From Variovorax paradoxus (GTDB lineage: Bacteria > Bacteroidota > Bacteroidia > Flavobacteriales > Flavobacteriaceae), in contig CALRRY020000012.1 of assembly GCA_943370635.1 (NCBI GenBank), positions 7,856-71,855 of the forward strand: a DNA stretch of 64,000 nucleotides, read 5' to 3'. The translations under genes were made by a program, and so were the position numbers. Below, in pieces: positions 1 through 19,781 of this stretch. Within the stretch, counting starts at the first letter, position 1, and each line of letters begins with the position of its first letter. The notes beneath the pieces are model-generated. The model was not told the DNA's origin and ran no database searches. It worked only from the letters and a program-made list of their open reading frames with translations.

Positions 1-2719
1 TGTTCCTGATGTGGGTTGAAGTATTAACTTCTCCACCTTCATCCGGATTTTGATTTAGTTTATTGTATAGTCCTGATGCCGTTGGCTCTTCTTCTTCATC
101 AAACATTTTGGCATCTTCTCCCAATGAACTGTGAATTAAGAACATCTTTTGGGCCGCTATTTCTCGTGATTTTACAATATCAGCACCTATCTCTGATGGG
201 AAAAAGTTATAAATGTATAATTCATCAAATACCTTTGCTCCAATACGATTTATACGACCTACTCTTTGAATTACCCTTGTTGGGTTCCAAGGAATATCAT
301 AATTGATAATAACACCAGCTCGGTTTAAATTGAAGCCCTCAGAAAGCTTGTCGCTAGTTAATAATACATCAAAGTGATTGGTTTGTGTTCCTTTGTATTG
401 TGCGTTATAGTCTGTATTTAGATTTTTAGCCAATTCTTTTGAAACCTTACCATCACAAACGATTAATCGTATTCCAAATTTCTCACGGAAATAAGGCTCT
501 AGGTGTTTTATAGTATCAACATATTCTGAAAATAATATTACTTTTCTGTTTTTGTCAGCTGCTAGAATGGCTTTTATTTCATCTGCTATACGTTCTCTTT
601 TTGGATCATTATCTACAATTTTCAATGCTGTCAATTGGTTTTGTATTTCCTGAAACACCACTATATCACTTTCTATATCTGCCAAAAAATCTGACTTTCT
701 TTGAAAATCATTTACATCATAAACTGTATTATTTTTAGGTACTTTTTTATTTAATAAGTCTTTTGAATATTCGCTTAAAACCCTATCAATATCATCTTCA
801 TCATACATTTTTATTTTATCAATCAATCCTCTGTCTAATATGTATTTACCGTTTGATTTTTCAATGAAATCTCTGACTACAATATGAACTTGTAAAAATC
901 TATCGATGGATTGGCTGAAAGCTCCAAAAGAGCTTTCGAAACGTTTTACTAATAAACGTCTCATAAAATCAAATAAGTTTTGTTGTTGTTGGAATTGTCT
1001 GTTTCCTTGTTCGTCTAACTTTTCTTCATCAACTATTTTTTCATAACTGAATGGCTGGTAAATTGCCCCTTTGAACCTTCCGTTTTCTTCAAAATATTCG
1101 TTTAGAATTCTGTCGTAAAAAGTGTTTTGTTCGTGTGTTAAATGATAAAATAATTCTACTGGGTCTTTTACTTTTGATAAATCTCCCACTTCTGCTTTAT
1201 AAATGTAATCTTCTTTTAAATCTAATCGGTTTCTACGGATTACTACAGATGAAATAATATTTTTGATTTGATTGGCTAACACTTTGGTTTCGTGTCGAAC
1301 GATATTAATATCAACTGGTAATTCCTTGTTTAGCATTGTCACATAAAGTGCTTCCGCCTTTTGTCTCTTTTGTGGTTTATTTGAATTCCAATTTTTAATG
1401 ATGTCAGAAAGTCTTTTATATTTGTAATTAAAACCACGAAACAATCCTTCTAAATTGTCATCAATCGTTATTCCAGATTTACCAGGAACAATAAATAATT
1501 TCAATAAGGAAAATATATCCGCAGGAGAATTATTAAAAGGCGTAGCCGTTAATAAAATAACGGTTCTGTCTCTACAAATAGTTAATAATGCTTCATAATC
1601 GGCAGTATCTTGGTTTCTGAAATAATGTGCTTCGTCGACAATCACCACTTCAATTCCTTTGGTTTGAATAGTATCTGCCAAATCTTCTAATTTTCCACGA
1701 CTTTCTACTTCCCAATCGTATAACTTAAAATCATTAATATATCCCCACCAACCCGAACTGTATGTTTTGTCACCTATTAATCCCGGAGGACAAATAACCA
1801 TTCCTCTTTTACCTAAATTTTTAGCGATTAATGAAGCAATTACCGATTTACCTAAACCAACTACATCGGCAATAATAACACCGTTGTATTCTTCAATTAT
1901 TGATAATGCTTGATTTACAGCATCGGTTTGATAACTGTATTTTTTATATCCGATTTCCTCCAGTAGGTTTTCTACTTCGGGTTTTATTTGTTTTTGTTGC
2001 TGTAAGTCTAAATAGGTTTTTAGTATTAAAACATACGCTTCAAAAGGTGTAACTGATGCTGCTTGAGATTTGTGCTGAATGAATTGAATAAGAAACTCTT
2101 TTCTGTTTTCGATTTCTGAAATAGGAATAGCTCGTTCCCAAAGTTCATCAAAATAGGTTTCGGCATCTACAAAACCATAATCTTTTATCTCCACATTAAA
2201 CTCTTCTTGACCTGATAATCCCGCACGTGTTAAATTACTACTACCTGTAATAAATTGCCCTGTCATTGCTTGTATTTCTGCCTGTTCTTCGTTTAATCGG
2301 AATAGGTATAACTTAGCGTGGTTTGAATTTTCGGTTTTGCGAATTATTAATCGTTTTTCGTTTAGCATTTGCAGAAAGAACTCTACTTGGTTGTAGAATG
2401 CTTCTGTGTCCATTTCTTCGTTGTTAATGGCATTACCCATTGAAGTCATAAACTGATTGAATTGGTCGTCTTGTGATTGTTCTTCTTCTTGACTACCGTG
2501 TTCAACAATTTTATTTAGAATTTGATCTACTTGTAGTCCAACCAATAATTTTAGTGTTAGTTTATCATTCTTTTTAAGATTTTCAAAGAGTTCTTGCCAT
2601 CCTGAAAAATAAAAGAAACCTACTAGAAATTTAAGTTCATCACTAATTCCGATTAATGTATTTAACCTCCCTTTTAGTGATTTATGTGTTTTATTATTGG
2701 TTATGAAATTGTTTGCCAT
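1..2719 (-). CDS. PLD-family nuclease fused to SF2 (SNF2-like) helicase; 3' end runs off the window (over 906 aa)
   Basis: Not in the ORF track. I translated from the ATG at 2719 (MANNFITNNKTHKSLKGRL) and the motif-bearing segments, down to base 1, stay in one frame. Motifs: HAKLY and GSSNLT (PLD half-site), ADVVGLGKS (Walker A), DEAH, TATP, SEGFNL, QRVGRINR. Confidence 0.92.
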   Translation of the reverse strand, partial: MANNFITNNKTHKSLKGRLNTLIGISDELKFLVGFFYFSGWQELFENLKKNDKLTLKLLVGLQVDQILNKIVEHGSQEEEQSQDDQFNQFMTSMGNAINNEEMDTEAFYNQVEFFLQMLNEKRLIIRKTENSNHAKLYLFRLNEEQAEIQAMTGQFITGSSNLTRAGLSGQEEFNVEIKDYGFVDAETYFDELWERAIPISEIENRKEFLIQFIQHKSQAASVTPFEAYVLILKTYLDLQQQKQIKPEVENLLEEIGYKKYSYQTDAVNQALSIIEEYNGVIIADVVGLGKSVIASLIAKNLGKRGMVICPPGLIGDKTYSSGWWGYINDFKLYDWEVESRGKLEDLADTIQTKGIEVVIVDEAHYFRNQDTADYEALLTICRDRTVILLTATPFNNSPADIFSLLKLFIVPGKSGITIDDNLEGLFRGFNYKYKRLSDIIKNWNSNKPQKRQKAEALYVTMLNKELPVDINIVRHETKVLANQIKNIISSVVIRRNRLDLKEDYIYKAEVGDLSKVKDPVELFYHLTHEQNTFYDRILNEYFEENGRFKGAIYQPFSYEKIVDEEKLDEQGNRQFQQQQNLFDFMRRLLVKRFESSFGAFSQSIDRFLQVHIVVRDFIEKSNGKYILDRGLIDKIKMYDEDDIDRVLSEYSKDLLNKKVPKNNTVYDVNDFQRKSDFLADIESDIVVFQEIQNQLTALKIVDNDPKRERIADEIKAILAADKNRKVILFSEYVDTIKHLEPYFREKFGIRLIVCDGKVSKELAKNLNTDYNAQYKGTQTNHFDVLLTSDKLSEGFNLNRAGVIINYDIPWNPTRVIQRVGRINRIGAKVFDELYIYNFFPSEIGADIVKSREIAAQKMFLIHSSLGEDAKMFDEEEEPTASGLYNKLNQNPDEGGEVNTSTHIRN

Positions 2720-2750
2720 CTTATTAATGCACTTATAATCTATTATTTAT

Positions 2751-4172
2751 TTATTTTTTGACAATATAGCCACCCGTTTTTGGAGCACCTGCAAATTCAA
2801 CTAAGTTATTCTCTTTTAGAATTTTCATATATCTTTCGACCGTGGATATTCCCTTGTCAATTTTTGAAGCTATATCCGGAACTTTTAACATTGGTTGATT
2901 GTTCAAAGCATTTAATATACTTATCAATTCTAATTTTACTCCCTCGTTTACTCCCTCAATATTTAATTTTACTCCCTCGTTTACTCCCTCGTTTACTCCC
3001 TCATATTTTTTACTATGAAAGACACCCGGAAAGGCTAATTTTAAAACATTATCGTTCTCAGACCAAACAGGCGGTTTGAATTTGTTTTTCTTGCAATCTT
3101 TAATAATACGCAGTGTTCCGCTACCAAGCATTTCAATATATTTTCTGATGAAGCATATTTGAGCAATATCTGGATTTCTTAAAATAGAATGATGTTCTGT
3201 TTTTAACTCTTGTAATGTTATACCATTAAGAAGGCCTCCGAAATTGCTGATTTCAGTTTTGTTTTCATAAATAGAAATTTGTAAAAACCCATTAACCGAA
3301 TTGTAATCACGGTGTACTATTGCATTTAAAATACCCTCACGAAAAGCTAACTCAGGGAAGTTTTTTCTTTCTTCTCTTAAAATGCCTTCCACTTTTATTG
3401 ATTTGCCAAAAATGGCTTCTATGTATTGTAGAACCTCGTTGATATTCTTGAAGATGTTACCATCAAATATTTTATCATCAATGAATGAATTGGAAGATTT
3501 GTTTCCTGGATAAACTGTAATTCTAATTTTAGATTGCGGAATAAAACGAGTAGGGTGTTTGCCAAAAAGAACCATACAAGCATTGGTAATATTGCCGTTT
3601 TGAATTAATCCTAACTGAATAAGGAAGTCTTCAACATCCAGAAATTTAGCCTCTTTTTTATATTCTAAATAGGAAGAAATTGTTTTGTTTATTTCAACAA
3701 AATCTAAATCTTCTAATTCAGCACCAAGAACCGCCATTCGCTCCCAATTGAAATCGGCTTGTTTTCTGTCTGATATTAAAACATTTAAAGCATTTTCTTT
3801 TGATGACTTTGTTTGTTGTCCGGCTCTATTGTATATTGTGTTATTGTATGTGTAAGGTTTTCTTGCTCCTTCCCAAACACTTACTAATACTAATTCTCTG
3901 TTTTTATAGATTACTTTTTGAACCGCAATTGGTGCTAATGGTTTTATACTCTCCACAAGAAAATTTTGAAGATTATCTACCATTTCATCGGCATTGTGAA
4001 CACCTACTATTTTTTTATCATTATCAACACCTACAATTAAATCACCACCTTGTGTATTAATAAAAGCTGTAATTGTTTTAGCAATTGTATCGGTATTAAA
4101 AGAAGTTTTAAACTCCAATCTTTCACTTTCATTTTGTTGGAGTAAATTATCAATAATAAAACTATTCTCCAT
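2751..4172 (-). CDS. Schlafen/AlbA_2 domain + RecG-C-like ATPase (HATPase_c_4) + C-terminal winged HTH protein
   Basis: N-terminal ESERLEFK and AFINTQGGDLIVGVD (AlbA_2/Schlafen); FREGILNAIVHRDY and RNP..IEMLGSG (HATPase_c_4); C-terminal HTH-like ISTVERYMKILKE..GAPKTGGY. Confidence 0.85.
   Translation of the reverse strand: MENSFIIDNLLQQNESERLEFKTSFNTDTIAKTITAFINTQGGDLIVGVDNDKKIVGVHNADEMVDNLQNFLVESIKPLAPIAVQKVIYKNRELVLVSVWEGARKPYTYNNTIYNRAGQQTKSSKENALNVLISDRKQADFNWERMAVLGAELEDLDFVEINKTISSYLEYKKEAKFLDVEDFLIQLGLIQNGNITNACMVLFGKHPTRFIPQSKIRITVYPGNKSSNSFIDDKIFDGNIFKNINEVLQYIEAIFGKSIKVEGILREERKNFPELAFREGILNAIVHRDYNSVNGFLQISIYENKTEISNFGGLLNGITLQELKTEHHSILRNPDIAQICFIRKYIEMLGSGTLRIIKDCKKNKFKPPVWSENDNVLKLAFPGVFHSKKYEGVNEGVNEGVKLNIEGVNEGVKLELISILNALNNQPMLKVPDIASKIDKGISTVERYMKILKENNLVEFAGAPKTGGYIVKK
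2935..3003. repeat. Five copies of a 12-bp unit (TTTACTCCCTCR) encoding EGVN/EGVK tetrapeptides
   Basis: Units at 2935, 2947, 2968, 2980 and 2992; protein EGVNEGVNEGVKLNIEGVNEGVK. Confidence 0.95.
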
Positions 4173-4794
4173 CGTTTTCTTCTTTATAGGTTAATACTCT
4201 TTCAACAAATTGCAAGTCAGAAAACTGTGCATTGATATAGATTAGCATTTCATCTAAACGGTAAAATTCCTGTGCCCAATTACCATTTCGTAAAGTAACT
4301 GGAACGTGATTTTTTATTACATATTCATAAACCTCAATACTTCTTTTATCAAATAAACGCTTATCATCAATAACCAATCCATCAAAAAATGCTTTGTCTT
4401 CAAAAACACTCTTCTCATCAATTTTAAACTTCATTTTTTTAAATAGGTTCCGAGCAAAAACAACGTCTCTATGTACCAAAAACCAGTATGGTTTTTTGAG
4501 TTCGATGGCTTTTTTAATTTCCTCAAAAGTGATGTTCTTTTCTCCAATGTTACCTGTGCCATAATAGCCTCTAATAATACCTAAAAACAAATCGCATTCC
4601 TCTACAGCAGCTAAACAGTTGTCTAAATTTGACAACTTAGGATTTACTTTGATACTGCCGTGATGTGAATTGAGCACATCATAACCCAACATTGTAAGTT
4701 GGGCTACAATTTGAGACAATTGGTCTTCAAAACCATAAACGGTAGAGCCTACCATTATTTTTATCTTTTTTTGTTGCTGCTTTTTCTTTGCCAT
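4162..4794 (-). CDS. Stand-alone DUF4062 (TIR-like / nucleoside deoxyribosyltransferase-like fold) protein
   Basis: IMVGST..FED, CLAAVEECDLFLGIIRGYYG, ITFEEIKKAIELKKP match the DUF4062 pattern, including the conserved Glu. Confidence 0.8.
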   Translation of the reverse strand: MAKKKQQQKKIKIMVGSTVYGFEDQLSQIVAQLTMLGYDVLNSHHGSIKVNPKLSNLDNCLAAVEECDLFLGIIRGYYGTGNIGEKNITFEEIKKAIELKKPYWFLVHRDVVFARNLFKKMKFKIDEKSVFEDKAFFDGLVIDDKRLFDKRSIEVYEYVIKNHVPVTLRNGNWAQEFYRLDEMLIYINAQFSDLQFVERVLTYKEENDGE

Positions 4795-7700
4795 TATTTT
4801 ATGCTATAATTATCATACTCCTGCTCACTTAAACCAAAGTCTTTATCTACCACCAAAACTTCTTCATAAGTAAGCTCGTAGAGTTTGTAAACCATTAGGT
4901 CGATTTTGGCTTCTAAATCAGTAGTGTCAATGTTATCTTTTTTTAAATTTAAGATTTCATCGGCTATTTTTACAAACTGACTTTGAGTTATAGTGTCTGC
5001 AATCTTAATAGGTATCTTTCTTAAAAAGGTTAGTTTTACCTGTGCAAAAACCTTTCCGCTTTCAGTTATTAAAAGCTTATAGAGAAAATTTCCAAATTTT
5101 GAATTTAAAATTGATAAAATATATTTAAGATTGTAATCTTTATCATTATTAATAATTGAATGTACGGAATCTATACAATAAAACTCTTCTTCTTTGAAAG
5201 TAGCAATTAAATCAGCAGACGTTTGACGAAGAAAAATTTTAGGACTTTTAAAAAATTTATCATCTCTTTTACACCATAACCACTCACCATATTCAATAAA
5301 ACCATCATTCCAACTTTCTTCATACCTATTAAAGTCTTTACCTCTCATTACTGGTTTTGATGATTTTGATATTATTGAATTATTAAAATAATTTATCTTC
5401 TCACCTTGTACCTTCGCATAGACAGTAATCCCTTGTGTGCTAAAAGTTATTGACCCAAGTTCCTCAGTATTGGTTGAGTATTTTTTTAGAATTTTATAAT
5501 TATCAATTGTTTTGAAATCAAACGAATTTGAATCATAATCTTCTTTATCTAATTCATACTTACTTAATAAATTGAGATCATTATTTTTAATTTGATATTT
5601 TGTAAATTTGGTTTTTGTATGTTTTTTTTCGTTGTTTTTTATTAAGAAAGAAATCGAACTATCTACAATAGCTGTTTCAAAAACATTTTCAATCCTTTCT
5701 GTAACCTCAATAATATCAGTATGCTTTCTAATATAATTTCTTAGTCCCTGGAATTGTGTATAAACCGTAAAAGTATGAGGCGTTATGTAAGAAAGTATTC
5801 CTTTTTCACTTAAATAATCTATACCTATCTTAAAGAAGAAAATGTATAAATCATAATGTTTCGATAAAACATCTTTAAATAAATTTTGAAAAAAATCTTT
5901 GTCTTTTTTTGTTGAAACTTCAACGTAAGGTGGATTACCTATAACTATATCAAATTTTTCTACACCAAACATCCAATCAGGGTCAAACCATTTAGAACCT
6001 TCATTGCTAAAAGGGTTCCAATGATACAATTGACTTTCTCTAGCGGTTAAATTATTTGTGTTATTGGTTTTATTTATTTTGTTTTGAACGGCTTTAAACT
6101 TACTTTTTAAATCAACTTTTTCAACTGGTGTTGCTTGTAAATAAGCATTTCTTATTTTTTGTAATTCAATCAAAATCTCTTCATTTTCCCCAAAGTCAAA
6201 ACTCATTGATTTACCAACAGTATTTCCTTTGTCTAAACTAATTAAAGTATTTGCTGTCACAAACTTAAATTCTAAATTAGGCAAAGGTTCAATCCCTCTG
6301 TTTTCCGCTTTATCATCAATATTTTCATCTATAATTAAAGAAAGAAAACTTCTTAATTTAGAGATTTCAGCTGCAATGGGTTGAATGTCCACACCATAAA
6401 TAGAGTGTTGAATAACGCCCAATTTACGAGCATAATCATTATTTGAAAATTGAAGTTTTCGCTTAAAATCATTTAAGTAAATAGAATCTAAAACCTTTGA
6501 AGCTTTACTTATTTGCATTTCTCTCCACCATACAGCTTTATCATCTAGTTTTTTTAGAATTTTGATAATTTTATGCAATACTCCCATAGGAAAAGCTCCC
6601 GAACCACAAGCAGGATCTAAAATTTTCACTTCGCTTAAGGCTTCGAGTATTGCGATGGTTTCTTTTTCGTTGAACGGGTTTTCGGTATCGTCTTTTAGCA
6701 ATACTTCCAACTGTTCTTCGTCTTCAATATTGGTTTTGGTTTTGATGTACTGCAATAGTGATTGTTCTACCATATAATCAACAATCTCACGAGGTGTATA
6801 GAAACTCCCTGTAGATTTACGAGCACTTTTCTCGGTATCGGGGTCAATCTCTGCCAATAGATTTTCGAAAATAGTTCCTAACATTTCCGGGTCAATACTT
6901 ACCTCAAAATCGTTAATGCTATTTTCATCAATGGTAAAATTGTATTGTTCTAGTGTTTCAAAGAAATCTCTAAACCATTGGTTAGGTATGTTCAGTGCAA
7001 AATTTTGACTGTGAATTCCTTTGCTGTCTTTTGGGAAAAAGTCATCATCTTGAGCTTCAAAAAGTCCACCATTTAAAAACGGTACAAACTCGTGATTGTT
7101 CGGTAACACATAGGGTTTTCTGTCTTCGTGCTTTTTGTTTAAAACTAAAAAGAATAATTTTTCTAGAATGGAATGATAGTAATTGTGTTGGTCGTTATTG
7201 ACACTTGCCACCATATTTGACGAAAGCCATTCTTCGGGAATTAACGGAACTCCACTGTCTGACTTCTTATTTTTTAGAAACCAACAAAAAATAGTTCTAC
7301 CAATTAATCGTACTGCGAATTCTTGGTATACTTTTCTATTCTCGGTAGGTGTTGATGGAAGTTGCAAGCAGGAATTAAAAGAAACTTCTTTTTTGTTTAT
7401 ACTTACTTTACCTCCAATAAGACTATAAAAAGCGGTTGCAATCTCTTCATAGAATTTTTTGTTTAATTTTTCAACACTAAATGCTTCTTGAATGTCTTCT
7501 AACGAGCCAAAATTACATCCATTAATTCTGTTTTTGAATGTTTTGTTTGTTCTTGATGGGTCAACAAAATAAGTATAACGTTTCCAATTGGTAAACTTTT
7601 GGTCTTTGTTACCATAATTTTTACGGATGAATGAAAAACGGAAGCAATCATTACTATCATAGAAAATAAAAATAGCACCGTCTTTAAAATCTTCTTTCAG

Positions 7701-7961
7701 GACTTTTTTGGCAATTTCAAACTGTCGTTTCTTTGAAGAGCGTTCCGATAATACTCCTTGAAATTTACAGGCAAAAACAATTAATTCATCTGAGTTACTA
7801 AATTCTACTTCTCCAATTTTTTGTAGTTCAGAGAAATGAGCAAAATCCGCATCTTTTAGTATGTAGTCTAGGTTCTCGCTATTTGGAGAAAATGAGGAAA
7901 TTTTATTTTTAAAAAAATCAGCAATTGATTTTACAGAGAAATTTTGAATTAGTTTGTCCAT
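4794..7961 (-). CDS. Type IIG/Eco57I-like N6-adenine DNA methyltransferase with C-terminal target recognition domain
   Basis: GSFYTPREIV, ILDPACGSGAF (SAM binding), DIVIGNPPY (motif IV), TaqI_C-like TRD (PKIFLRQT, YILSILNSK). The first M in the ORF track is a TTG; the ATG at 7961 is taken as start. Confidence 0.9.
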   Translation of the reverse strand: MDKLIQNFSVKSIADFFKNKISSFSPNSENLDYILKDADFAHFSELQKIGEVEFSNSDELIVFACKFQGVLSERSSKKRQFEIAKKVLKEDFKDGAIFIFYDSNDCFRFSFIRKNYGNKDQKFTNWKRYTYFVDPSRTNKTFKNRINGCNFGSLEDIQEAFSVEKLNKKFYEEIATAFYSLIGGKVSINKKEVSFNSCLQLPSTPTENRKVYQEFAVRLIGRTIFCWFLKNKKSDSGVPLIPEEWLSSNMVASVNNDQHNYYHSILEKLFFLVLNKKHEDRKPYVLPNNHEFVPFLNGGLFEAQDDDFFPKDSKGIHSQNFALNIPNQWFRDFFETLEQYNFTIDENSINDFEVSIDPEMLGTIFENLLAEIDPDTEKSARKSTGSFYTPREIVDYMVEQSLLQYIKTKTNIEDEEQLEVLLKDDTENPFNEKETIAILEALSEVKILDPACGSGAFPMGVLHKIIKILKKLDDKAVWWREMQISKASKVLDSIYLNDFKRKLQFSNNDYARKLGVIQHSIYGVDIQPIAAEISKLRSFLSLIIDENIDDKAENRGIEPLPNLEFKFVTANTLISLDKGNTVGKSMSFDFGENEEILIELQKIRNAYLQATPVEKVDLKSKFKAVQNKINKTNNTNNLTARESQLYHWNPFSNEGSKWFDPDWMFGVEKFDIVIGNPPYVEVSTKKDKDFFQNLFKDVLSKHYDLYIFFFKIGIDYLSEKGILSYITPHTFTVYTQFQGLRNYIRKHTDIIEVTERIENVFETAIVDSSISFLIKNNEKKHTKTKFTKYQIKNNDLNLLSKYELDKEDYDSNSFDFKTIDNYKILKKYSTNTEELGSITFSTQGITVYAKVQGEKINYFNNSIISKSSKPVMRGKDFNRYEESWNDGFIEYGEWLWCKRDDKFFKSPKIFLRQTSADLIATFKEEEFYCIDSVHSIINNDKDYNLKYILSILNSKFGNFLYKLLITESGKVFAQVKLTFLRKIPIKIADTITQSQFVKIADEILNLKKDNIDTTDLEAKIDLMVYKLYELTYEEVLVVDKDFGLSEQEYDNYSIK

Positions 7962-8072
7962 CAAAGTATATTTTGTGAGCTAATGATTAACTTGAAAAAT
8001 GTAAAGTTGTAAATGTATGAAAAAGCAATGGAAAGAAAAATGAGGAAAACCGTAAACGGATGAAATAAACAG

Positions 8073-8391: not shown

Positions 8392-10485
8392 TTATTCTTC
8401 AACCATTTTGTTTCTGTTATCAACGTCTTCCCAAGTATTTTCTATTAAAGCGTACACTGCTATTCCGTTCTTTTTTAATCGAATGAAGTTGTGTTTTTTT
8501 AATGCTTTGCCTAATTTGTTAATTGTGCCATCGGTGATGTTTATTTTAGCTTTTTCAGCCAGTTTGGCTGCTATTTGCGAAGCATTGAGGAAAACATTAG
8601 CCTTTTCTCTTTGGCAAGGTTCAAACCACGTTAAAAGCAATTCTTCTTCTGGACTGTGGAGTTGGTATTGTTCGTTATTTTCGGTGATGTTTTTGATTTC
8701 TTCCTGGTCGAACCAATATCTAAAACCACTTTTGAAAAGAAACAATGCTTGTGAAAAAGCCAGATTAATATCTACATTGTGTTGGTATTTGATGCCTTCT
8801 AATTCAAAACAAAGAAACCTTCTGCTTCCTGTACTGTCGTTTAAGAACTGTGCTGTATTGACACTTCCGGCAAACGATGCCCTTCTGGGCATTGTTTCGT
8901 TATTGTGTCCGTAGGCTTTTCTCATTCTTATTTGAGTTTTTGTAATGATTTCTTTGAGTGATCCAATTTCGGAACGGTTTAAGTTTTCTAGTTCGTCCAA
9001 GTTGATTAACATACATTCTGAAAGCTGCACCAATGTATCTTTGTTGTTTGGGTTTATGGTCCCGGAAAATAGATATTCTTTCAAAGGTTTTGGAACCAGT
9101 TTTTCCACCCAAGTTGTTTTACCCAGTCCTTGCTTGCCACTGAATACAATTACCGTGTGATTGATTACTTTATCATCAAGGACACAACCCACCATTGCCA
9201 CTAACCATTTCTTGAAACATTGCTGCCAAAGGTCTTGTTTTGTAGTTGTGATTGTGTTTGCTAATTCAGTAATATAATCGGTCTTTTCATCATAAGAGGG
9301 CAAATTAAAAAAGTAATCTTCAAATGGATTGAACAGTACACAAAAATCAGAATACAATAAATTTCGTAATGAAGATAGGTTTGTTTTAATTCTACCTTTT
9401 AAACACTCTCGGAGCATTGAATTTTCTATAAAATCATTCATCACATTCCACTTTTTTTTACCAAAATATTGGAACTCTAATTTTCCAGATACTATGTTGT
9501 GCCGAAATACATATTTGTTTGATAAAAACAACTCTAAACGGTCAATTTGGGTTGGTTTTGGTTTGTCTTCGTCGTCTTCGTCAGTAGTATCTGTTATTGA
9601 AAAATTATCGTTCTTTTTGGGTTTATTAGGTTGTTCAAATTTCTCATTTTTGCCAAACTCGTGGATGTTTCCGTAGGCACTATTGACTGCTTGTGTTACT
9701 TCTTTTTCATCATATCCAAAATCTGTTAGAATATATCCCAAAGCATCGTTTAATGCAACTCCTTTTCGGTTTAGGTTGCACGCTAGTTGGTGTACGAATA
9801 CGTTGCGACTACCATTCACAAATTGTACTTTTTTTTCGGTGAAATTTACGCAATGGTTGTAAATGGCTTCGCTGTTGTCGGTTGTTGGTTGTTGGTTGTC
9901 AGTTTGAGATTGCTTCACTTCGTTCGCAATGACATCTTCTTTAACTTCACTCGCAAAGACGGTAGAGTTTTCATTGAGATACAAATTTTCATCCCAGGAA
10001 TAAAAGCATAACCTAGTTAAATCTTTGCCTGATTTGTCTATTTCTAATTTTAAAATATTCTCATAATGAGCTTGAACCTTTAGGAACGTTTCTTTATGTT
10101 CGGTTTTTGGTGTTTCTATTTTTACAAGAATTTTTAAACCATTTCCAGAAGGACTAATGAAACACGCATACGTGAACTCACTTTGTGCAGCTATACTTTT
10201 TGATTTTTGTAAATCGGTTGTACTTAATTTGTCAATATCTAAGATTATAAACTTTGAATATTCTGTTAGGAATTCTAATTTACGACCACCAACAAATTTT
10301 CCTGAAGGTGTGAATGCTGAAAGTGATTTTTTTGCTTTGTTGTATGCTTCCTCTTTCTTTTCAGCCAATGATTTACGCAAGTAAATTATGCCGGGTTTGT
10401 ACTTTCCAGTTTTAATTTCCTCCAAAATTGTTGCAATTGTTTTGTGTTCTACAACTTCGTTGAAATTCTTGAATATTGTTACCAT
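8392..10485 (-). CDS. BT4734-like/VirE-N primase-like domain + PriCT-like domain + VapE P-loop helicase (element replication protein)
   Basis: FTPSG.F, IILDID, FISPSGNGLK (BT4734-like N-terminus); GSRNVFVHQLAC (PriCT-like); GKQGLGKT Walker A, LINLDEL Walker B, RKAYG..MPRRASFAGSVN, DSTGSRRF (VapE). Confidence 0.85.
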   Translation of the reverse strand: MVTIFKNFNEVVEHKTIATILEEIKTGKYKPGIIYLRKSLAEKKEEAYNKAKKSLSAFTPSGKFVGGRKLEFLTEYSKFIILDIDKLSTTDLQKSKSIAAQSEFTYACFISPSGNGLKILVKIETPKTEHKETFLKVQAHYENILKLEIDKSGKDLTRLCFYSWDENLYLNENSTVFASEVKEDVIANEVKQSQTDNQQPTTDNSEAIYNHCVNFTEKKVQFVNGSRNVFVHQLACNLNRKGVALNDALGYILTDFGYDEKEVTQAVNSAYGNIHEFGKNEKFEQPNKPKKNDNFSITDTTDEDDEDKPKPTQIDRLELFLSNKYVFRHNIVSGKLEFQYFGKKKWNVMNDFIENSMLRECLKGRIKTNLSSLRNLLYSDFCVLFNPFEDYFFNLPSYDEKTDYITELANTITTTKQDLWQQCFKKWLVAMVGCVLDDKVINHTVIVFSGKQGLGKTTWVEKLVPKPLKEYLFSGTINPNNKDTLVQLSECMLINLDELENLNRSEIGSLKEIITKTQIRMRKAYGHNNETMPRRASFAGSVNTAQFLNDSTGSRRFLCFELEGIKYQHNVDINLAFSQALFLFKSGFRYWFDQEEIKNITENNEQYQLHSPEEELLLTWFEPCQREKANVFLNASQIAAKLAEKAKINITDGTINKLGKALKKHNFIRLKKNGIAVYALIENTWEDVDNRNKMVEE
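9874..9960. repeat. REP-like half palindrome, a degenerate second copy and four GTTGTYR heptamers, all in frame in the VapE linker
   Basis: gagattgcttcacttcgttcgcaatgac at 9906-9933 (VIANEVKQS); degenerate copy at 9940-9960 (VFASEVK); heptamers at 9874-9901. Confidence 0.7.
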
Positions 10486-10615: not shown

Positions 10616-10897
10616 CTATCGTCCTTTAAATGATTTGTTGTAATGCTCTTGTAGTAGCTTTTCAACATCGGAAAGTTTGTAGTAGATTTTGTTTCCCACT
10701 TGACTGAATGAAATTTTGCCTTCGTCTCTCCAGGTTTGAGCTGTACGTTTTGAAATTTTCATTAGTAATAGGAATTCTTGATTGTCTAAAAAGGTTTCCT
10801 TCTTTGGGTCTGCCTTGATAGAAATTTGAGATTGAATAGTGTCTAATTTGCTCATTAGATCTGTGAACTGGTCTTTTGTGAAGATAATTGCATCCAT
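10616..10897 (-). CDS. Excisionase-like helix-turn-helix (HTH_17/MerR-like) protein
   Basis: FLDNQEFLLLMKISKRTAQTWRDEGKISFSQVGNKIYYKLSDV; typical of Bacteroidetes integrative elements; likely start MDAIIF. Confidence 0.85.
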   Translation of the reverse strand: MDAIIFTKDQFTDLMSKLDTIQSQISIKADPKKETFLDNQEFLLLMKISKRTAQTWRDEGKISFSQVGNKIYYKLSDVEKLLQEHYNKSFKGR

Positions 10898-10954
10898 TTT
10901 TAAAAGTTTTAAATTGTTATGGTGCAAATGTGAGCAGTTGAAAAAAGTCTTTTA

Positions 10955-12144: not shown

Positions 12145-13362
12145 TTAAAAAATATAGTTGTCTACAGCTTTGTCCAGTTCTTCGCTGATGATTTTGGCAT
12201 ATACTTGAGTGGTGCTGATGTCACGGTGGTCCATTAATTTAGAAACGTGCTCAATTCTCATTCCGTTATTTAACGCATTGGTTGCAAAGCTGTGTCTTGA
12301 TAAATGGAAAGAAAGGTCGAAAGGTAATTTTATTTTTACTCCCATTTTTTTAAGATGCCAGTTTGCCAATTTATTAAAAGCTGCTGTTTGAAAATATCGT
12401 TTTGCTTCGCTGTTCAAATAGCCTTCTTTGTCCATAATTATCGGAAAGATAAAATCATCGTGATTGGCGTTTTCCTTTTTGTATTTTTCTAAAATATCGA
12501 TAGCCACTTTACCAATTTTGAACTGGTGTACTCTTCCAGTTTTACGAATGTGTTTGTTGATTTTATGTTCTGCTTCATTGTAATTGGAATATTGCATTTC
12601 GATAACATCACTAAAACGCAAACCGCCCGCATAGATAGAGAAAAGGAATATATCCCTCCACATCATCGCTTTTTTGCCCTCAGTTAGCTTTAAATTGGTT
12701 AATGCATCTATCTGTACTTTATTAAGAAATAATCTTTTAGAAGAGCTGATTTTGAGGGTTATTTTGCTAAAAGGAAACATAGTTTCAGGAATTACTTCCT
12801 CCCGAATTGCATCCCTGAATATGGTTCCGAGCACAATTATGGAAAGGCGTTGAGTTGTATCACCGTTGCCTAAAGTATCTCCTAAATGAAATTTATAGTC
12901 GTTTAATAAAGCTACCGTAATTTCATCAAAATATACATCCTTTGTTCCCATATATTTTTCAAATTTATCAACCTGAGAGGTGTAAGCTCTGTAAGTGGAA
13001 TAAGAAACAGTGCTTTTAATTTTCTCTAATCTCTTTCTGGCATATTCAAAAAAGTTTGGCACTTCTTTACCCTTTATGGCTTCTTTGAGCTTTTTAACCG
13101 AAACGGTTTTGATTTTACGTTCCATATCGGCAACCTGACCTTCAGCATCTGCAATCTTTTGAGATAATGCAGCATTCATCCTAGCACTGTTTGAATGGTT
13201 CTTTTTTACTTTCTGCTTTACTTCATCCCACTCGTTCTCTTTAAGCTTCACTCCAGCAGTGATAAATTTCGTTTTTCTATCTTTTATAATTCGGATATAC
13301 AAAGGGCTGTGTCCGGTTTGGTCTACCTGATGTGTTCTTAAAATTAGTTTTACTGATGCCAT
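12145..13362 (-). CDS. Site-specific tyrosine integrase (Bacteroidetes Arm-DNA-bind_5/SAM_5 type)
   Basis: LYIRIIKDRKTKFI arm domain; GGLRFSD (Arg), KTG (Lys), SFHLSRHSFAT (HxxR), HRDISTTQVY (His/Tyr). Confidence 0.95.
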   Translation of the reverse strand: MASVKLILRTHQVDQTGHSPLYIRIIKDRKTKFITAGVKLKENEWDEVKQKVKKNHSNSARMNAALSQKIADAEGQVADMERKIKTVSVKKLKEAIKGKEVPNFFEYARKRLEKIKSTVSYSTYRAYTSQVDKFEKYMGTKDVYFDEITVALLNDYKFHLGDTLGNGDTTQRLSIIVLGTIFRDAIREEVIPETMFPFSKITLKISSSKRLFLNKVQIDALTNLKLTEGKKAMMWRDIFLFSIYAGGLRFSDVIEMQYSNYNEAEHKINKHIRKTGRVHQFKIGKVAIDILEKYKKENANHDDFIFPIIMDKEGYLNSEAKRYFQTAAFNKLANWHLKKMGVKIKLPFDLSFHLSRHSFATNALNNGMRIEHVSKLMDHRDISTTQVYAKIISEELDKAVDNYIF

Positions 13363-13846: not shown

Positions 13847-16393
13847 TTAAAAATTCAACTTCAAAAACGCATTGGGAGTCATTTCCAAAGAATAGGTATT
13901 TACCTCTTCAATGGAAGTATTGGCTGTATTGAGGCGATAAAAGCGATTAATTGTATTGCGTTGGTTCAGGAGGTTCATGATGGACACACCCAAAAATAGT
14001 TTGGTTTTTTTGCCCAATGGCATAGAGTAGGCAGTTGAAAAATTCAATTGAATATAATCATCCAAATTTTCTGCGTTGGGTAAGCTGTAGGCAATTTCGG
14101 GATTATCGGGTATATTAAAGACAGGTTCACCCGTTAACGGTACCGTATTGGGGCGGCCGGTAAACCAGCGTCCACCCAAGGCTATTTTCAGTTGTTTCCA
14201 TTCATAGGTTGTACTCATTGCTACACTGTGGTTTACTTCAAAATTATTAGCAAATTGGGGTGGAATATAGCCGTCAAAAGTGTATTCGTTGTTATTAAAA
14301 CTGTAATTGATCCAACCGGTGAACCGGTCTATTTGTTTTTGTACCAATACTTCCACACCATATACTTCGTAGGCTCCAATGATTTTGAGGAATTCCAATT
14401 GGTTTTGAAATCCTTGAGCGGAACTGGTAATGCCATTCACTTTTTTATAAAATACTTCCGGTTGGATGAGCCAATTGTTTTTTCGAAAAGTTACATTCAT
14501 CCCAATTTGATTGCTTTTTTGAATCGGAATATTGTCATTATTGGCTAGTATCCAACGTCTTTTTTCTACGCCTAAAAAGTCTTGTTGTAAATCGATGATT
14601 TGAGATGCGGTTTGGCTTTTTTGTTCACCGGAGACTTCTATTTTCAGGTGATTTGTAACGGCATAATTGAATACGAATCGCGGTTCTATCAGGAAGAGTG
14701 TCCATTTTTCAAAGTAATTGCCTCGGACTCCTATTCTTGCAAAGAAATTACCGTTTTTTGACTGATAATCCAGTTCGGCAATGGCGGCATGACTTCGGAG
14801 TACTTCTTTAACGGTTCGTTGAAATTGGGGTTGGTTTACTTCATCAAAACTGCGGATTCCGATTTCATTAAATTGGTAACCATTTTTAAAGAGCCATTGT
14901 TCCGAGAGTTGGTGAGTGTTTTTCAATCGTAAGCCATTGTCCAACACTGAATTTTCTTGAACTAAAAGCTGATTGGTTGTTACGGATTGGTTTTCGCCTT
15001 CTAATTGATAAAATGAACTGTAAAGGCTCAACTCTGTTTGATGTTTTTTGTTCCATTGGGTTTTCCACGTTAGATTTCCGCCTAATGTTCGTTGATTTAA
15101 TTCGCTTTGTTTGGAGCGTATTTGACTACCTTCTATTTTATTTTCATTAAAACTCAATTCGTTTGAAATGGCAATTCCATCCACCAAAAGCTCACTTTTA
15201 TTTCCTATTTTTTGGTGGTATTGCACCGTAAAATCATAAAAATAAAAGTCTTCAGAGCTATTGAATGCTACTCCTTGATTGTTGGTTAAATTGACTACCT
15301 CGGTATTTTGAAAAATACGTTTGAAATAGTTTTCATAGGTAGGTGATGAAGCAAAGTCAGTAAACGAGCGTCGCCCAGAAATTTCAATACCGGCATTTTT
15401 TCCTACTTTCACTTTAGTGTACACTTCGGCATTGATCATGTTTACCCCTATAGTTGAAGATGTTTCCTCAGAGAGGTCAGTACGGGATGAAATGTCGACT
15501 ACGCTGGAAACACTTTCCCCATAAAAAGCCGAACTTCCATTTTTGGCTACTTGAATGGTATGAGCTAAATTGGGATTTAAAGCCGAAATTAACCCAAAAA
15601 AGTGTCCGGTTTGATAGAGTCGAATTCCGTTCCAAAGGAATAAATTTTGGTCATGGGTGCCGCCTCTTACATTTAAATTGGCAATGGTTTCGTCGGTGCT
15701 GATAATGCCCGGTATTTGTTGCATGGTTTGCAAAACATCGGGTTCTACCAATCCGGGTAGTATGCCAAACTTTTTAGGTTTGATTTCAATGGTTCCGTCC
15801 AATTTTTTTCGTATACCGTTGGTGAGGTATTTTTGGGCTACAACTTCTTCCAATTCCTGAACGGCATAGACTAAGGTAAAGGTTGGACAGTTTTCAACAT
15901 ACATTTCTTTTACTGAAAGGGTAATTGATAGATAGCTTACATGGCTGATTTCGATTGGATTTGGAGAATAAACGGGTAATTGAAAAAATCCTTGCTCGTT
16001 TGAAACGGTAAAGGTATTGGTCCCCGAAATTCGTATGGTTGCATTGAAAATTGGTATATTTGATTCGCTATCGAGCAAATAACCACAGAGAGGTTTGTCT
16101 AATTTTTTGTTGTTGGAAATCGCAATAAGTTGGTCACTAATGAATTTAAACCGCAAATTGGTTTGGCTTTGTAAGTAGTCGAGTTTTTCTTCCAGTGTTT
16201 TTTTTGCGATGGGCCATTTTACAGTATAAATGGTAATTTCTTCTTCAATAAAATTGAATTTAAGTTGGTGTTGTTGTTCCATTTCCTGAAGGATTTCCTT
16301 GAGGGGCATAGGTTTACTGAGGTTTTGACTCATTAGACTCAAAACCCAACCTATTGTAACGAGTAGCGTTACTCTGCAATGGGATACCTTCAT
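13847..16393 (-). CDS. TonB-dependent receptor with N-terminal signalling and CarboxypepD_reg-like domains
   Basis: Plug motifs EPDVLQTMQQIPG, NVRGGTHDQN, LYQTGHFFG; C-terminal Phe; downstream of ECF sigma and FecR. Confidence 0.9.
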   Translation of the reverse strand: MKVSHCRVTLLVTIGWVLSLMSQNLSKPMPLKEILQEMEQQHQLKFNFIEEEITIYTVKWPIAKKTLEEKLDYLQSQTNLRFKFISDQLIAISNNKKLDKPLCGYLLDSESNIPIFNATIRISGTNTFTVSNEQGFFQLPVYSPNPIEISHVSYLSITLSVKEMYVENCPTFTLVYAVQELEEVVAQKYLTNGIRKKLDGTIEIKPKKFGILPGLVEPDVLQTMQQIPGIISTDETIANLNVRGGTHDQNLFLWNGIRLYQTGHFFGLISALNPNLAHTIQVAKNGSSAFYGESVSSVVDISSRTDLSEETSSTIGVNMINAEVYTKVKVGKNAGIEISGRRSFTDFASSPTYENYFKRIFQNTEVVNLTNNQGVAFNSSEDFYFYDFTVQYHQKIGNKSELLVDGIAISNELSFNENKIEGSQIRSKQSELNQRTLGGNLTWKTQWNKKHQTELSLYSSFYQLEGENQSVTTNQLLVQENSVLDNGLRLKNTHQLSEQWLFKNGYQFNEIGIRSFDEVNQPQFQRTVKEVLRSHAAIAELDYQSKNGNFFARIGVRGNYFEKWTLFLIEPRFVFNYAVTNHLKIEVSGEQKSQTASQIIDLQQDFLGVEKRRWILANNDNIPIQKSNQIGMNVTFRKNNWLIQPEVFYKKVNGITSSAQGFQNQLEFLKIIGAYEVYGVEVLVQKQIDRFTGWINYSFNNNEYTFDGYIPPQFANNFEVNHSVAMSTTYEWKQLKIALGGRWFTGRPNTVPLTGEPVFNIPDNPEIAYSLPNAENLDDYIQLNFSTAYSMPLGKKTKLFLGVSIMNLLNQRNTINRFYRLNTANTSIEEVNTYSLEMTPNAFLKLNF

Positions 16394-16397
16394 TAAC

Positions 16398-17288
16398 CTA
16401 TTCTAAGCTATATTGATTGTTACCGGTTTTGTTTATTTTTAAATGATAAGTAGTGGCAATAATATCGAGTGTAGCTTCGAGATTATCAGTTGGAATAACC
16501 CCTGTAAATCGTTGTTGAGTTGGAGGAGTTTTGATTTCTATTTCTATCTTGTATTGTCTTTTTATTTCTTCTACAACAGCGGTTAGTTGCTCTTTAGAAA
16601 ATTCCATTTGTTTTTGCAACCATCCAGGTGCAGTAAGTTGCGTTTGTTCGTCTAGAATTAGGTTGCCGCTTTCAAAAGCAACTGTTTTTCCGGGAGTTAA
16701 GATGATAAGTTGATTTTGGTAGTTAACTTGAACTTTACCTTCATAGCAAGTAACATCTAATCGATTGGCACGACTTTTCACATTGAATTGCGTACCTAAA
16801 ACAGTAACTTTACCAATTTCAGTATTTACTTCAAATTTTTTTCCTTTGGCGACTTTAAAATAGGCTTCTCCATCGAGGGTTAATTTGCGTTCGTTGTTCC
16901 AGTTCCATTTTTTGTATTCTATCTCCGAACCCGAATTGAGTAATACGGTTGAATTGTCGGGTAACAAAAATTCTGTTGTGGAACCATTTAAAGCATATTC
17001 CGTGAAATTTGCAAAATTTTTCACGGCAAAGGTAATTCCGAAACTTAAGATGACAACGGCAGCTATGTGAAGCACCACTTTTTGAATGGAAATGCTTTTT
17101 GTTTTTTTCGTTTGTAAAATATTTTGCAACATTTTATTTTCGTCAAAATCTGGTGTTTTGAGTTCAGCTGAATAGTGTTTAATTTTTTGGTAAAGTGCAA
17201 AATCTTCTGAGGCTTCAAAAGCTTTCAGCTCTTCACCTTCCAGTTCATTGTTCAGCCATTTTGCTAAGTTGTAATGTTCTTCCATCAT
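16398..17288 (-). CDS. FecR family anti-sigma factor
   Basis: LPDNSTVLLNSGS, LDGEAYFKV, TVLGTQFNV, V.CYEGKV; one TM segment. Confidence 0.92.
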   Translation of the reverse strand: MMEEHYNLAKWLNNELEGEELKAFEASEDFALYQKIKHYSAELKTPDFDENKMLQNILQTKKTKSISIQKVVLHIAAVVILSFGITFAVKNFANFTEYALNGSTTEFLLPDNSTVLLNSGSEIEYKKWNWNNERKLTLDGEAYFKVAKGKKFEVNTEIGKVTVLGTQFNVKSRANRLDVTCYEGKVQVNYQNQLIILTPGKTVAFESGNLILDEQTQLTAPGWLQKQMEFSKEQLTAVVEEIKRQYKIEIEIKTPPTQQRFTGVIPTDNLEATLDIIATTYHLKINKTGNNQYSLE

Positions 17289-17302
17289 GATGATTTTATA
17301 CT

Positions 17303-17330
17303 AAAACAAGTTGGATTTCAAATACCCTAC
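17303..17330 (-). promoter_or_regulatory. Putative ECF-dependent promoter upstream of fecR (GTAGGGTA-N13-TTGTTTT)
   Basis: The same bipartite motif with the same spacing occurs at 17895-17922 and 22269-22296. Confidence 0.7.
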
Positions 17331-17848
17331 TTTAACATTGTAATTTCTTTTCTCAGTTCGAGCAAGGCTAAATGCATTCTTTTTTCAACTGCTTTCACGC
17401 TTATGCCAAGAGTTTCGGCAATTTCACTGTATTTTTTTCCGTCAATTCGGTGCATTAAAAAGCAAGTGCGTTGGCCTTCAGTTAATTTATCGATTGCCTT
17501 TTGCAGTTTGACTTTGAATTCATTTTCTTCCAAATGAAAATCAGGGCTTTCAAACGTTTTGTCTTGTTTTGGGACGCTTTTAGCATATTCCAACACTACT
17601 TTTTGATGGGCAATTTGATTGTGTGTTGTATTGTTAGCGATAGTGTATAAATAGGATTTTGCTTTGTCTAAAGGTACTTTTTCGCAGTTTTCCCAAAGTT
17701 TGATAAAGGCTTCTTGAGTTACATCTTCGGCTTGCTCTGCATTACCGAATTTATAATACATATAATTTCGTAAGGCTTTTACGTGGTTTTTGAAAAAGTT
17801 ATTAAAAATGACTTCTTCACAAATTCCTGTGAGTGATTGATTATTCAT
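17327..17848 (-). CDS. ECF-type RNA polymerase sigma factor (FecI-like)
   Basis: AEDVTQEAFIKLW (region 2); KKYSEIAETLGISVKAVEKRM (region 4). Confidence 0.95.
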   Translation of the reverse strand: MNNQSLTGICEEVIFNNFFKNHVKALRNYMYYKFGNAEQAEDVTQEAFIKLWENCEKVPLDKAKSYLYTIANNTTHNQIAHQKVVLEYAKSVPKQDKTFESPDFHLEENEFKVKLQKAIDKLTEGQRTCFLMHRIDGKKYSEIAETLGISVKAVEKRMHLALLELRKEITMLK

Positions 17849-17894
17849 TTATGATAAAAAAACTTTGTGAAATTATAAAAAAAAACTTAGGTAG

Positions 17895-17922
17895 GTAGGG
17901 TAATTTGGATTTAATTTGTTTT
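17895..17922 (+). promoter_or_regulatory. Putative ECF-dependent promoter (GTAGGGTA-N13-TTGTTTT)
   Basis: gtagggta at 17895-17902 and ttgtttt at 17916-17922, about 20 nt before the ATG at 17942. Confidence 0.7.
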
Positions 17923-17941
17923 GTATTTAAACAAGAGTCTG

Positions 17942-18949: not shown

Positions 18950-19098
18950 TTGTGTGAAAGATGAAAACGATACTCCAAAATTTTATATACGGAAAAAATA
19001 ATTTCATTTATTTTTTAACACAAGCCGTGATTTGGGTGTTTAACTTTTTGTTGATTTACATCTTGTTTTTTTAGTTTTTACTCCGTAAAAAAGTATTT

Positions 19099-19706
19099 AT
19101 GAAAGGTATCTTGAATTATTTTGATCCGGATTTATTAACTCTTTTTGAAAAAGAAGGTGTCATTAAAGATATTCCTAAGGATACTGAGCTTATTAGAGAC
19201 GGTCAATACATTAATTCTATTCCTATTGTTATCCGAGGACTGGTAAAAGTTTTTACGAAATACCATGAAAAAGAATTCCTACTTTATTATATTCAACCGG
19301 CTGAAAGTTGTGTTTTATCATTTATTGTGAGTAAAAAAATGAGCCGAGTACTTTTTTTGCCAAAACTGAGGAAGATAGCGAAATTTTATTGTTGCCGGCC
19401 ATAAAAGTGCAGGAATGGATAAAAAAGTACCCGCAGTTTAACGCTATGTATTTTAATTTATTTAATGAGCGTTATTTTGATTTAATTGATACTTTAAACC
19501 ATGTTTTGTTTGATCGGTTAGATGCCAGGTTATATTTATATTTAAAAGAAAAAATGACGCATCATCCTAGTGCTGTCATTACTACTTCACACAAAGATAT
19601 TGCCTATGAAATGGGCACTTCCCGAGAGGTAATCACCCGTGTTTTAAAGAAATTAGAAACGGAATCTAAAGTGATTCAGACTTCAAGAGGGATCGAATTA
19701 TTGTAA
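19099..19706 (+). pseudogene. Crp/Fnr family regulator split by a frameshift in an A7 run (19333-19339)
   Basis: ORF1 holds the cNMP-binding half and ORF2 the HTH (HKDIAYEMGTSREVITRVLKKL); one extra A would give a single 202-aa protein. Confidence 0.8.
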
Positions 19707-19708
19707 AG

Positions 19709-19722
19709 GTGACTTTTGTCAC
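19709..19722. promoter_or_regulatory. Crp/Fnr-type palindromic operator GTGA-N6-TCAC
   Basis: gtgacttttgtcac directly after the Crp gene and upstream of the DUF2892 gene. Confidence 0.65.
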
Positions 19723-19781
19723 TTTTTTTAGATTTTAGTTGATTTACTTTTACATAAGTAAACCAATTAAAATCAAATCGT

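Follow-up and report, generated by a model that had tools for sequence, protein, structure and literature searches.

A DUF4062-Schlafen gene pair in the variable slot of a methyltransferase-helicase operon

When two genes are nested in an operon that resembles a restriction-modification (R-M) system, do they belong to that system, or do they form a system of their own, and what might they do? The question is raised by a locus at the start of a 64,000-nucleotide stretch of Flavobacteriaceae DNA (contig CALRRY020000012.1, positions 7,856 to 71,855), referred to below as the window. Here four consecutive minus-strand open reading frames (ORFs) encode, in the order of transcription, a methyltransferase (MTase), a DUF4062 protein, a Schlafen protein and a helicase. 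A first-pass annotation, made by a model from the sequence letters and an ORF list only, had singled out the middle two genes as a candidate guard of the R-M complex, and the computational analysis described here followed up the same window. On balance, and with modest confidence, we favour the reading that the pair is an abortive-infection module of two genes, self-contained and horizontally mobile, inserted in a variable slot between the MTase and helicase genes, in which a predicted NAD+ hydrolase (NADase) effector would act under a Schlafen-ATPase sensor or scaffold.

The pair as a conserved unit

The first gene of the pair (4162-4794, minus strand) encodes a 210-amino-acid (aa) protein that matches Pfam PF13271, the DUF4062 family recently renamed NIR. 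The second (2751-4172, minus strand) encodes a 473-aa protein that Pfam, AlphaFold2 (AF2) and Foldseek identify as a Schlafen protein with a GHKL ATPase domain and a winged helix-turn-helix (wHTH). The gene coordinates and junctions read in the first pass are all borne out by the ORF calls and the sequence. The MTase stop and the DUF4062 start have one base in common (TAATG), the DUF4062 and Schlafen ORFs overlap by 11 nt (4162-4172), and the ATG of the helicase lies at 2719, 31 nt beyond the Schlafen stop.

This tight coupling was claimed from the window, and it recurs. When 80 genomic loci were fetched by the DUF4062 protein alone, a full or partial Schlafen homologue was found directly downstream on the same strand in 77; the other three consist of one contig that is truncated, one gene that is split and one ORF missed in calling. 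Of the 77 paired loci, 70 have overlapping genes, and in 40 the overlap is the identical 11 nt. The possibility that the two genes never co-occur elsewhere, which would have spoken against a functional pair, can therefore be set aside. Reverse look-ups starting from Schlafen homologues placed a DUF4062 gene immediately upstream in four of four cases. In addition, among 80 loci selected by the helicase, Schlafens with at least 58% identity always accompany a DUF4062 gene, while Schlafen-ATPases at 22-26% never do. DUF4062 and Schlafen genes are paired far beyond chance.

The two proteins also diverge together (Mantel r = 0.87, with none of 999 permutations as high), and a natural fusion of 640 aa (P0346) carries DUF4062, SLFN_AlbA_2 and HATPase_c_4, whose order follows that of the genes. 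Two-way adjacency that is close to obligate, the conserved overlap, correlated divergence and the fusion together argue that the pair is one functional unit.

The pair was searched for in phage and plasmid collections. No match was found among the phages, and the plasmid matches number only two, both distant. On a Hymenobacter conjugative plasmid the pair is kept at 33-39% identity. The small Acinetobacter baumannii plasmid pC9_4 (L172, NZ_CP113446, 1984-4351) encodes, beside an ORF of 166 aa, a DUF4062 protein with 41% identity over its core and a partner with a degenerate Schlafen domain. This partner is annotated as a 'Fic family protein', which is misleading; it aligns over its length with the window protein at 27% identity and has GHKL and Fic-like_C wHTH domains.

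The host operon, its slot and other genomic neighbourhoods

On either side of the pair, the window encodes an N6-adenine MTase of the type IIG/PglX-like kind (4794-7964, minus strand; 1056 aa, Pfam Eco57I and TaqI_C) and a PLD(HKD)-SNF2 helicase-nuclease (1-2719, minus strand; Pfam PLDc_2, SNF2 and Helicase_C). The helicase ORF continues beyond the window and is 1120 aa at full length on the source contig (L173). In the helicase-selected set, 80 metagenome loci chosen by the helicase alone (L088-L167), the MTase and a PLD-SNF2 helicase of about 1120 aa form a conserved two-gene core. At least 11 of these loci have the two directly adjacent, at gaps between -11 and +6 nt. Elsewhere the slot between them holds AbiEi (DUF6088) and AbiEii (several loci, including L128, L133, L134 and L164), a lone Schlafen-ATPase of 540-640 aa (about eight loci) or assorted small ORFs, and only two loci, L089 and L102, have the DUF4062-Schlafen pair. 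The helicase protein of L088 is 99% identical to that of the window (94.6% for the DNA), yet a frameshifted Schlafen-ATPase (103 + 548 aa) replaces the pair. The MTase-helicase gap is a hotspot for cargo.

The edges of the cassette were located by blastn of the window against six of the loci with other cargo (L088, L090, L092, L093, L094 and L098). DNA homology ends at about 4807-4813, where the MTase has its last codons, and is restored from about 2719-2757, where the helicase begins, so that the insert comprises exactly two genes. We place the exchangeable cassette at 2720-4806 on the minus strand. The first-pass annotation had described a pair nested in an R-M operon as part of a four-gene unit. 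The nesting holds, as the pair recurs in R-M operons, but the fixed four-gene unit does not: in this survey of homologues with and without the insert, the core is found without it in at least 11 loci, and the slot is open to other cargo.

Two known systems were considered for the host operon and rejected. Type-2 BREX-related (BR) systems are defined by DUF499 and DUF3780 alongside an N6-MTase and an HKD-SNF2 helicase (PMC12839542), and neither the DUF499 ATPase nor DUF3780 is present on the helicase-selected loci or the source contig. A DISARM assignment fails as the helicase scores 123 bits against the DrmD models, which have a cutoff of 610, and DrmA and DrmB are absent from the flanks. A scan for sigma-70 promoters was uninformative, with counts near those of shuffled sequence; Bacteroidota use other promoters.

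Some relatives of the operon have further genes. In L081-L086 (for example L081 2438-7106) and in L018 (2986-7814), an inverted TaqI_C specificity-domain fragment and a 200-aa serine recombinase (Resolvase) follow the MTase, upstream of the pair; these are probably a phase-variable shufflon for target recognition by the MTase. Downstream of the helicase in L018 (13916-19095) lie two genes, one for a protein of 996 aa and one for a TPR + S1CSD-TOTE protein of 733 aa, which probably constitute a separate conflict system of the TOTE type.

Outside the MTase-helicase slot, the pair is found in diverse company. Neighbours within four genes were labelled for 79 loci with a small set of labels, so that the following counts are lower bounds. 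A labelled R-M or defence gene lies near the pair in 41 of the 79, and on both sides of it in 20. Type I R-M operons contain the pair in 22 of the 79, often as HsdR-HsdS-[pair]-HsdM, and the orders HsdS-pair-HsdM or HsdS-pair-HsdR are seen in at least nine loci. Other neighbours are type III enzymes, MmeI-type (IIG) enzymes, McrBC, Mrr and prokaryotic Argonaute (pAgo) proteins, and the pair also adjoins conjugative tra genes, or metabolic and housekeeping genes with large intergenic gaps. In six loci (L020, L023, L030, L040, L049 and L076) it lies directly upstream of a pAgo gene of about 690 aa (PADLOC PDLC02385, E 7e-268), and several of these have a gap of no more than about 10 nt (for example L030 9995-14094). 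Together, the pair and the pAgo may correspond, in split form and with a NADase added, to the fused SLFN-GHKL-pAgo proteins. In one type I operon (L169) that has the pair between hsdS and hsdM, a second, unpaired Schlafen-ATPase (2097-3548; 483 aa) lies between hsdR and hsdS.

These neighbourhoods bear on the guard proposed in the first pass. The anticodon nuclease PrrC is encoded within the EcoprrI (type Ic) R-M locus and fires when the R-M enzyme is inhibited. By this precedent the neighbouring R-M complex would keep the pair inactive or be monitored by it, and the pair would fire once a phage anti-restriction protein had disabled the complex; in a softer form it would sense common inhibitors of R-M enzymes, such as DNA mimics binding the wHTH or Schlafen surfaces, as PARIS senses Ocr. 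The close junctions with the MTase (TAATG) and helicase (31 nt), the loci with R-M or defence genes on both sides and the Hsd orders given above all suit such a guard. However, the neighbours are mechanistically unrelated, comprising type I, type III, MmeI-type IIG, MTase + PLD-helicase, McrBC, Mrr and pAgo systems, and direct recognition of every different R-M enzyme is implausible. Additionally, the pair occurs beside tra or housekeeping genes across large gaps, and the MTase-helicase system is complete without it, its slot holding AbiE or other cargo elsewhere. Given at least six unrelated kinds of neighbour, and loci where no R-M or defence gene is labelled, a guard of one particular R-M complex is unlikely by this genomic proxy, and we regard the guard reading as a whole, its softer form included, as improbable.

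The pair is a horizontally mobile cassette that is promiscuous in its neighbours, and its setting in the window is itself mobile. The upstream flank encodes a VapE/PrimPol primase (8392-10485), an HTH_17 excisionase-like protein (10616-10927) and a tyrosine integrase (12145-13362). Beyond the window start, the genes downstream of the operon on the source contig (L173) encode 151-aa, 62-aa and SMC_N/AAA_23 proteins; the last, of 809 aa, and a Macro + DarT module lie in the stretch 15448-20633. The operon lies on an integrative element in a defence island with multiple systems.

In a second alternative, the two genes are independent hitch-hikers or form an addiction or regulatory module. The wHTH protein would then be a transcription regulator, the pair would stabilise its island in the manner of a toxin-antitoxin (TA) system, or the two would be unrelated defence genes that travel together. 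The ArsR/MarR-like wHTH at the C-terminus, the location on a mobile element and the presence of the AbiE TA system in the same slot of relatives all fit. Nevertheless, the near-obligate adjacency in both directions, the overlap, the correlated divergence and the fusion run counter to it, and a mere repressor would need no invariant ATPase residues. We consider this alternative quite unlikely.

The predicted NADase and its Schlafen-ATPase partner

The 210-aa protein matches PF13271 over residues 12-96 with 49 bits against a cutoff of 24.7 (E 7e-13). PADLOC, NCBIfam and PHROG gave no match for it, PADLOC v2 contains no model for the DUF4062 gene, and a sequence search of the PDB was also negative. 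The absence of a named system for the pair, noted in the first pass, is upheld by the PADLOC run. DUF4062 has been described in three preprints of 2026 as a TIR-like NADase in Avs2, Vulcan, Vesta, Swarozyc and Evangelion (bioRxiv 10.64898/2026.05.01.722283; 10.64898/2026.06.25.731849; 10.64898/2026.09.04.749371). The characterised domains convert NAD+ to ADP-ribose (ADPR) and nicotinamide (NAM) with no cyclic products, require the catalytic Glu and a sensor or AUX part, and act by abortive infection. In the single-gene systems the C-terminal AUX sensor is indispensable, and that of KpSwz folds like a wHTH.

The AF2 model of the DUF4062 protein is poor, with a predicted local distance difference test score (pLDDT) of 59 from a shallow alignment of 26 sequences. 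The top Foldseek matches to this low-confidence model are the CMP N-glycosidase BcmB, DNPH1, NDTs and TIR domains (E 7e-4 to 1e-2), the same set of fold matches reported for the NIR domain of PsAvs2. They are consistent with, but not proof of, a TIR/NDT-like fold.

Conservation was counted over 75 aligned DUF4062-Schlafen pairs. F22, E92 and W173 of the DUF4062 protein are each present in all 75, and E91 in 74. The E91-E92 codons (4519-4524, minus strand; motif NITFEE) encode the putative catalytic Glu of the NADase. E92 is the one retained by the fusion P0346 and by the homologue from A. baumannii, both of which have K in place of E91. By position and motif, as opposed to direct alignment, E92 is comparable to E97 of KpSwz, E87 of Eva01, E98 of Vulcan and E103 of VstA. 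The family match, the invariant E92 and the preprints on NADase effectors strengthen the first-pass assignment of a TIR/NDT-like protein with a conserved Glu.

The protein stops about 35 residues past W173, and there is no further domain and no AUX sensor region. Its relatives are similar. There are 676 homologous clusters at 90% identity; among the matches listed, nearly all the homologues are stand-alone proteins of about 196 aa that are 55-77% identical and mostly from Bacteroidota, and the typical length of a family member is 186-215 aa, with little sequence beyond the W motif. Run against 1.84 billion representative proteins, a profile search found 570 relatives (clusters at 50% identity), almost all of 190-240 aa. 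Homologues are mainly from Bacteroidota, with some matches in other phyla. As judged from its sequence, the 210-aa protein is the bare catalytic core of a predicted TIR-like NADase and lacks a sensor of its own.

Variations on this core occur in some homologues. Tandem duplications of NIR are found within single polypeptides of 359-411 aa or as two adjacent genes (P0004, P0005, P0111, P0242, P0253 and P0267; L073 5559-6668) and are consistent with a domain that acts as a dimer. In P0294 (373 aa), DUF4062 is fused to a canonical TIR_2, placing two distinct TIR-type domains in one chain.

The 473-aa protein consists, in order, of a Schlafen (AlbA_2) domain, a middle domain, a GHKL ATPase, a repeat linker and a wHTH. 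Pfam matches are to SLFN_AlbA_2 at residues 15-122, HATPase_c_4 at 297-380 (E 9e-16) and a wHTH at 414-470, in agreement with the Schlafen, ATPase and wHTH parts recognised in the first pass. Its predicted architecture is that of 'Schlatpase' or pSlfn-HisKinase-HTH proteins. The AF2 model is good (pLDDT 80.9), except in the linker, where residues 389-402 are below 50. The wHTH (residues 410-471; 2760-2945, minus strand) is supported by Pfam HTH_5/HrcA, by AF2, which places helices over 410-454 followed by a beta wing, and by fold matches to ArsR/SmtB/MarR/Z-alpha proteins. The linker that joins the GHKL domain to the wHTH reads EGVNEGV...EGVNEGVKL and is encoded by a 12/33-nt tandem repeat found by TRF (2924-3002, minus strand); its length may differ among strains.

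Foldseek matched the Schlafen model end to end with the structural-genomics protein 3lmm (E 2e-23), and also with 2kyy. Single domains matched SLFN12, the N-domain of SLFN11, the SAMD9 tRNase and ArsR/MarR/Z-alpha wHTH proteins. By sequence, the only PDB entries matched were 3lmm and Schlafen 8, both weakly. Beyond Pfam, profile matches were solely to models of SLFN-pAgo/Aga fusions (PADLOC/NCBIfam) and to a PHROG named 'DNA helicase'.

The Schlafen nuclease motif is defined as Ex4(E/D)xK (PMC13056530). The window copy is intact, with E15-x4-E20-x-K22 in NESERLEFK (4107-4130, minus strand) and the companion D50 in GVD (4023-4025, minus strand); these motifs and ITFEE are present as the first-pass annotation had read them. 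Across the family the motif is less secure. E15 is kept in 55 of 75 partners, E20 (or D) in 60 and K22 in 49, so that the complete motif is found in 39 and is incomplete in 36. The losses are scattered single substitutions among close relatives (L006, L018 and L042) and clade-wide in L064-L079, and the motif is also incomplete in the fusion P0346 and both plasmid homologues. The GHKL residues E279, N283, H287, G312, R332-N-P-D335, E347, G350, G352 and R355, by comparison, are invariant in all 75. They include the N-box E279-x3-N283 (REGILNAIVHRDY; 3324-3338, minus strand), the predicted ATP gamma-phosphate and Mg2+ ligands, equivalent to E314 and N318 of RzAgo.

Since 36 of the 75 partners lack a complete motif, on which the first-pass annotation had relied, the obligatory output of the family cannot be tRNA cleavage. 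Conservation suggests that the Schlafen nuclease is dispensable family-wide and that the ATPase and NADase are not. This pattern also bears on a third alternative, signalling in the manner of Thoeris, akin to the signal-producer/effector pair named in the first pass, in which the DUF4062 protein would sense infection and make an NAD+-derived nucleotide signal that switches on a Schlafen tRNase effector, for example by binding in the GHKL pocket: although a small sensor-less TIR-like protein resembles ThsB, the GHKL nucleotide pocket is invariant and Cash Schlafens are activated by cA4, this is improbable, as the tRNase is not an obligatory effector, characterised DUF4062 enzymes yield ADPR and NAM instead of cyclic products, and the fusion of a producer to its receiver would be odd for a diffusible signal.

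The mechanism that we favour, an abortive-infection module of NADase and Schlafen-ATPase, would proceed as follows. The DUF4062 and Schlafen proteins would form a complex, and the Schlafen and wHTH parts would recognise a cue of infection, either foreign nucleic acid or a phage protein. The Schlafen-ATPase-wHTH protein may then serve as an ATP-driven oligomerisation scaffold that sets the NADase domains in an active arrangement, as in other TIR-type NADases. NAD+ would be hydrolysed and the infected cell would cease growth. In members that retain Ex4ExK, including that of the window, tRNA cleavage by the Schlafen domain may be a second hit. Placement within R-M operons would provide co-expression, co-transfer and a second line of defence, and implies no dependence on one R-M enzyme.

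A more specific form of this idea is that the Schlafen-ATPase, mainly an ATP-driven sensor or scaffold with an optional nuclease, licenses the sensor-less NADase in trans, and that the cassette is a system-agnostic sentinel of restriction failure, responding for example to DNA-mimic anti-restriction proteins or to unrestricted foreign DNA. We offer this as speculation with a small chance of being correct. If true, it would account for the colonised slots in many unrelated R-M, BREX-like, McrBC and pAgo operons.

Several points weigh against a self-contained NADase module. The case for a complex is a genomic one, and the lone fusion P0346 could be an artefact of assembly or a frameshift. The assignment of the NADase fold leans chiefly on Pfam and the literature, since the pLDDT of the AF2 model is only 59. 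No defence neighbour is labelled in 38 of the 79 loci, where the label set is limited and many contigs are short. A search of sequencing runs for the window sequence matched DNA metagenomes only (lake water and wastewater) and no transcript runs. Finally, HisKinase fusions were among the Schlafen architectures tested in E. coli, and only the DUF262 and Ig-like fusions defended (PMC13056530).

Significance and comparison with known systems

Recognition of DUF4062/NIR NADases and of bacterial Schlafens as immune effectors dates only from 2025-2026, and they connect bacterial immunity with human TEP1 and with SLFN11-14. In the locus described here, the two families are joined in a unit that is widespread. 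The pair opens the question of how a separate protein switches on a sensor-less TIR-like NADase. It bears on the role of the HisKinase-HTH Schlafens, the commonest architecture, for which phenotypes have so far come only from other fusions, and on why accessory abortive modules insert inside R-M operons. The scattered loss of the nuclease beside an invariant ATPase and NADase amounts to a falsifiable prediction as to which activity matters. No co-mention of DUF4062 and Schlafen was found in the literature searched, which did not extend to figures and supplementary operon panels, so that an unnamed example may have been pictured.

The DUF4062 protein resembles Swarozyc (KpSwz) and Evangelion (Eva01). 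PF13271 is common to them, the catalytic Glu (E92) corresponds to E97 and E87, the aromatic F22 to F11 and the tryptophan of the Q/W/E motif, W173, to W162, and NAD+ depletion with abortive infection would be the expected output of the window protein. However, their AUX sensor is in the same polypeptide and its truncation kills defence, whereas the DUF4062 protein of the window pairs with a separate Schlafen-ATPase-wHTH gene. Vesta (bioRxiv 10.64898/2026.09.04.749371) is likewise a two-gene operon with a small stand-alone NIR protein, VstA. Its second protein, the alkaline phosphatase VstB, is not required for defence, in contrast to the co-diverging Schlafen-GHKL-wHTH partner with its invariant ATPase residues.

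The partner itself belongs to a known class. Schlafen with a GHKL 'histidine-kinase-like' ATPase and an HTH is the commonest prokaryotic Schlafen architecture (PMC13056530). In the SLFN-pAgo protein RzAgo ('Schlatpase'), ATP bound at E314/N318 leads to a tetramer that is an active tRNase, and modules of the Schlatpase type have been noted in type I R-M operons (bioRxiv 10.64898/2026.05.29.728809). The window protein has the same SLFN_AlbA_2, PF13749 GHKL and C-terminal HTH domains, the E-x3-N ligands and Ex4ExK. The published proteins work singly or carry a fused sensor (Ig-like, DUF262, pAgo or Csx15), with the nuclease as effector. The clade described here differs in its obligate pairing with a NADase gene and in the loss of nuclease residues in half of its members.

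Schlafen-HisK-wHTH genes are embedded in over 1000 BREX and BREX-related loci, where they are presumed to be 'backup suicidal effectors' (NAR 2026, PMC12839542). The architecture and the second-line logic are the same, as is the placement with an N6-MTase on one side and an HKD-SNF2 helicase on the other. However, that survey mentions a DUF4062, TIR or NADase partner zero times, and the host operon of the window is without DUF499 and DUF3780.

PrrC is similar in that the gene for an abortive, RNA-targeting effector is nested in an R-M operon. There is no relationship of sequence or domains: the ABC-ATPase-like N-domain and the nuclease C-domain of PrrC have no Pfam, NCBIfam or PADLOC match in the window proteins. 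Moreover, PrrC belongs with a single R-M family, whereas the neighbours of the cassette vary widely. SPARTA and SPARSA, in which a short pAgo works with a TIR- or SIR2-APAZ protein, resemble the proposed mechanism in that a TIR-type NADase is activated via an oligomerising partner that senses nucleic acid, and six of the pair loci adjoin a pAgo gene. Unlike those systems, most pair loci need no APAZ or pAgo, and the NADase is a separate small protein. NIR NADases, prokaryotic Schlafens and the presence of Schlafen genes in BREX and R-M loci are all known already; what appears to be new, in the literature searched, is the pairing of the two proteins in one cassette.

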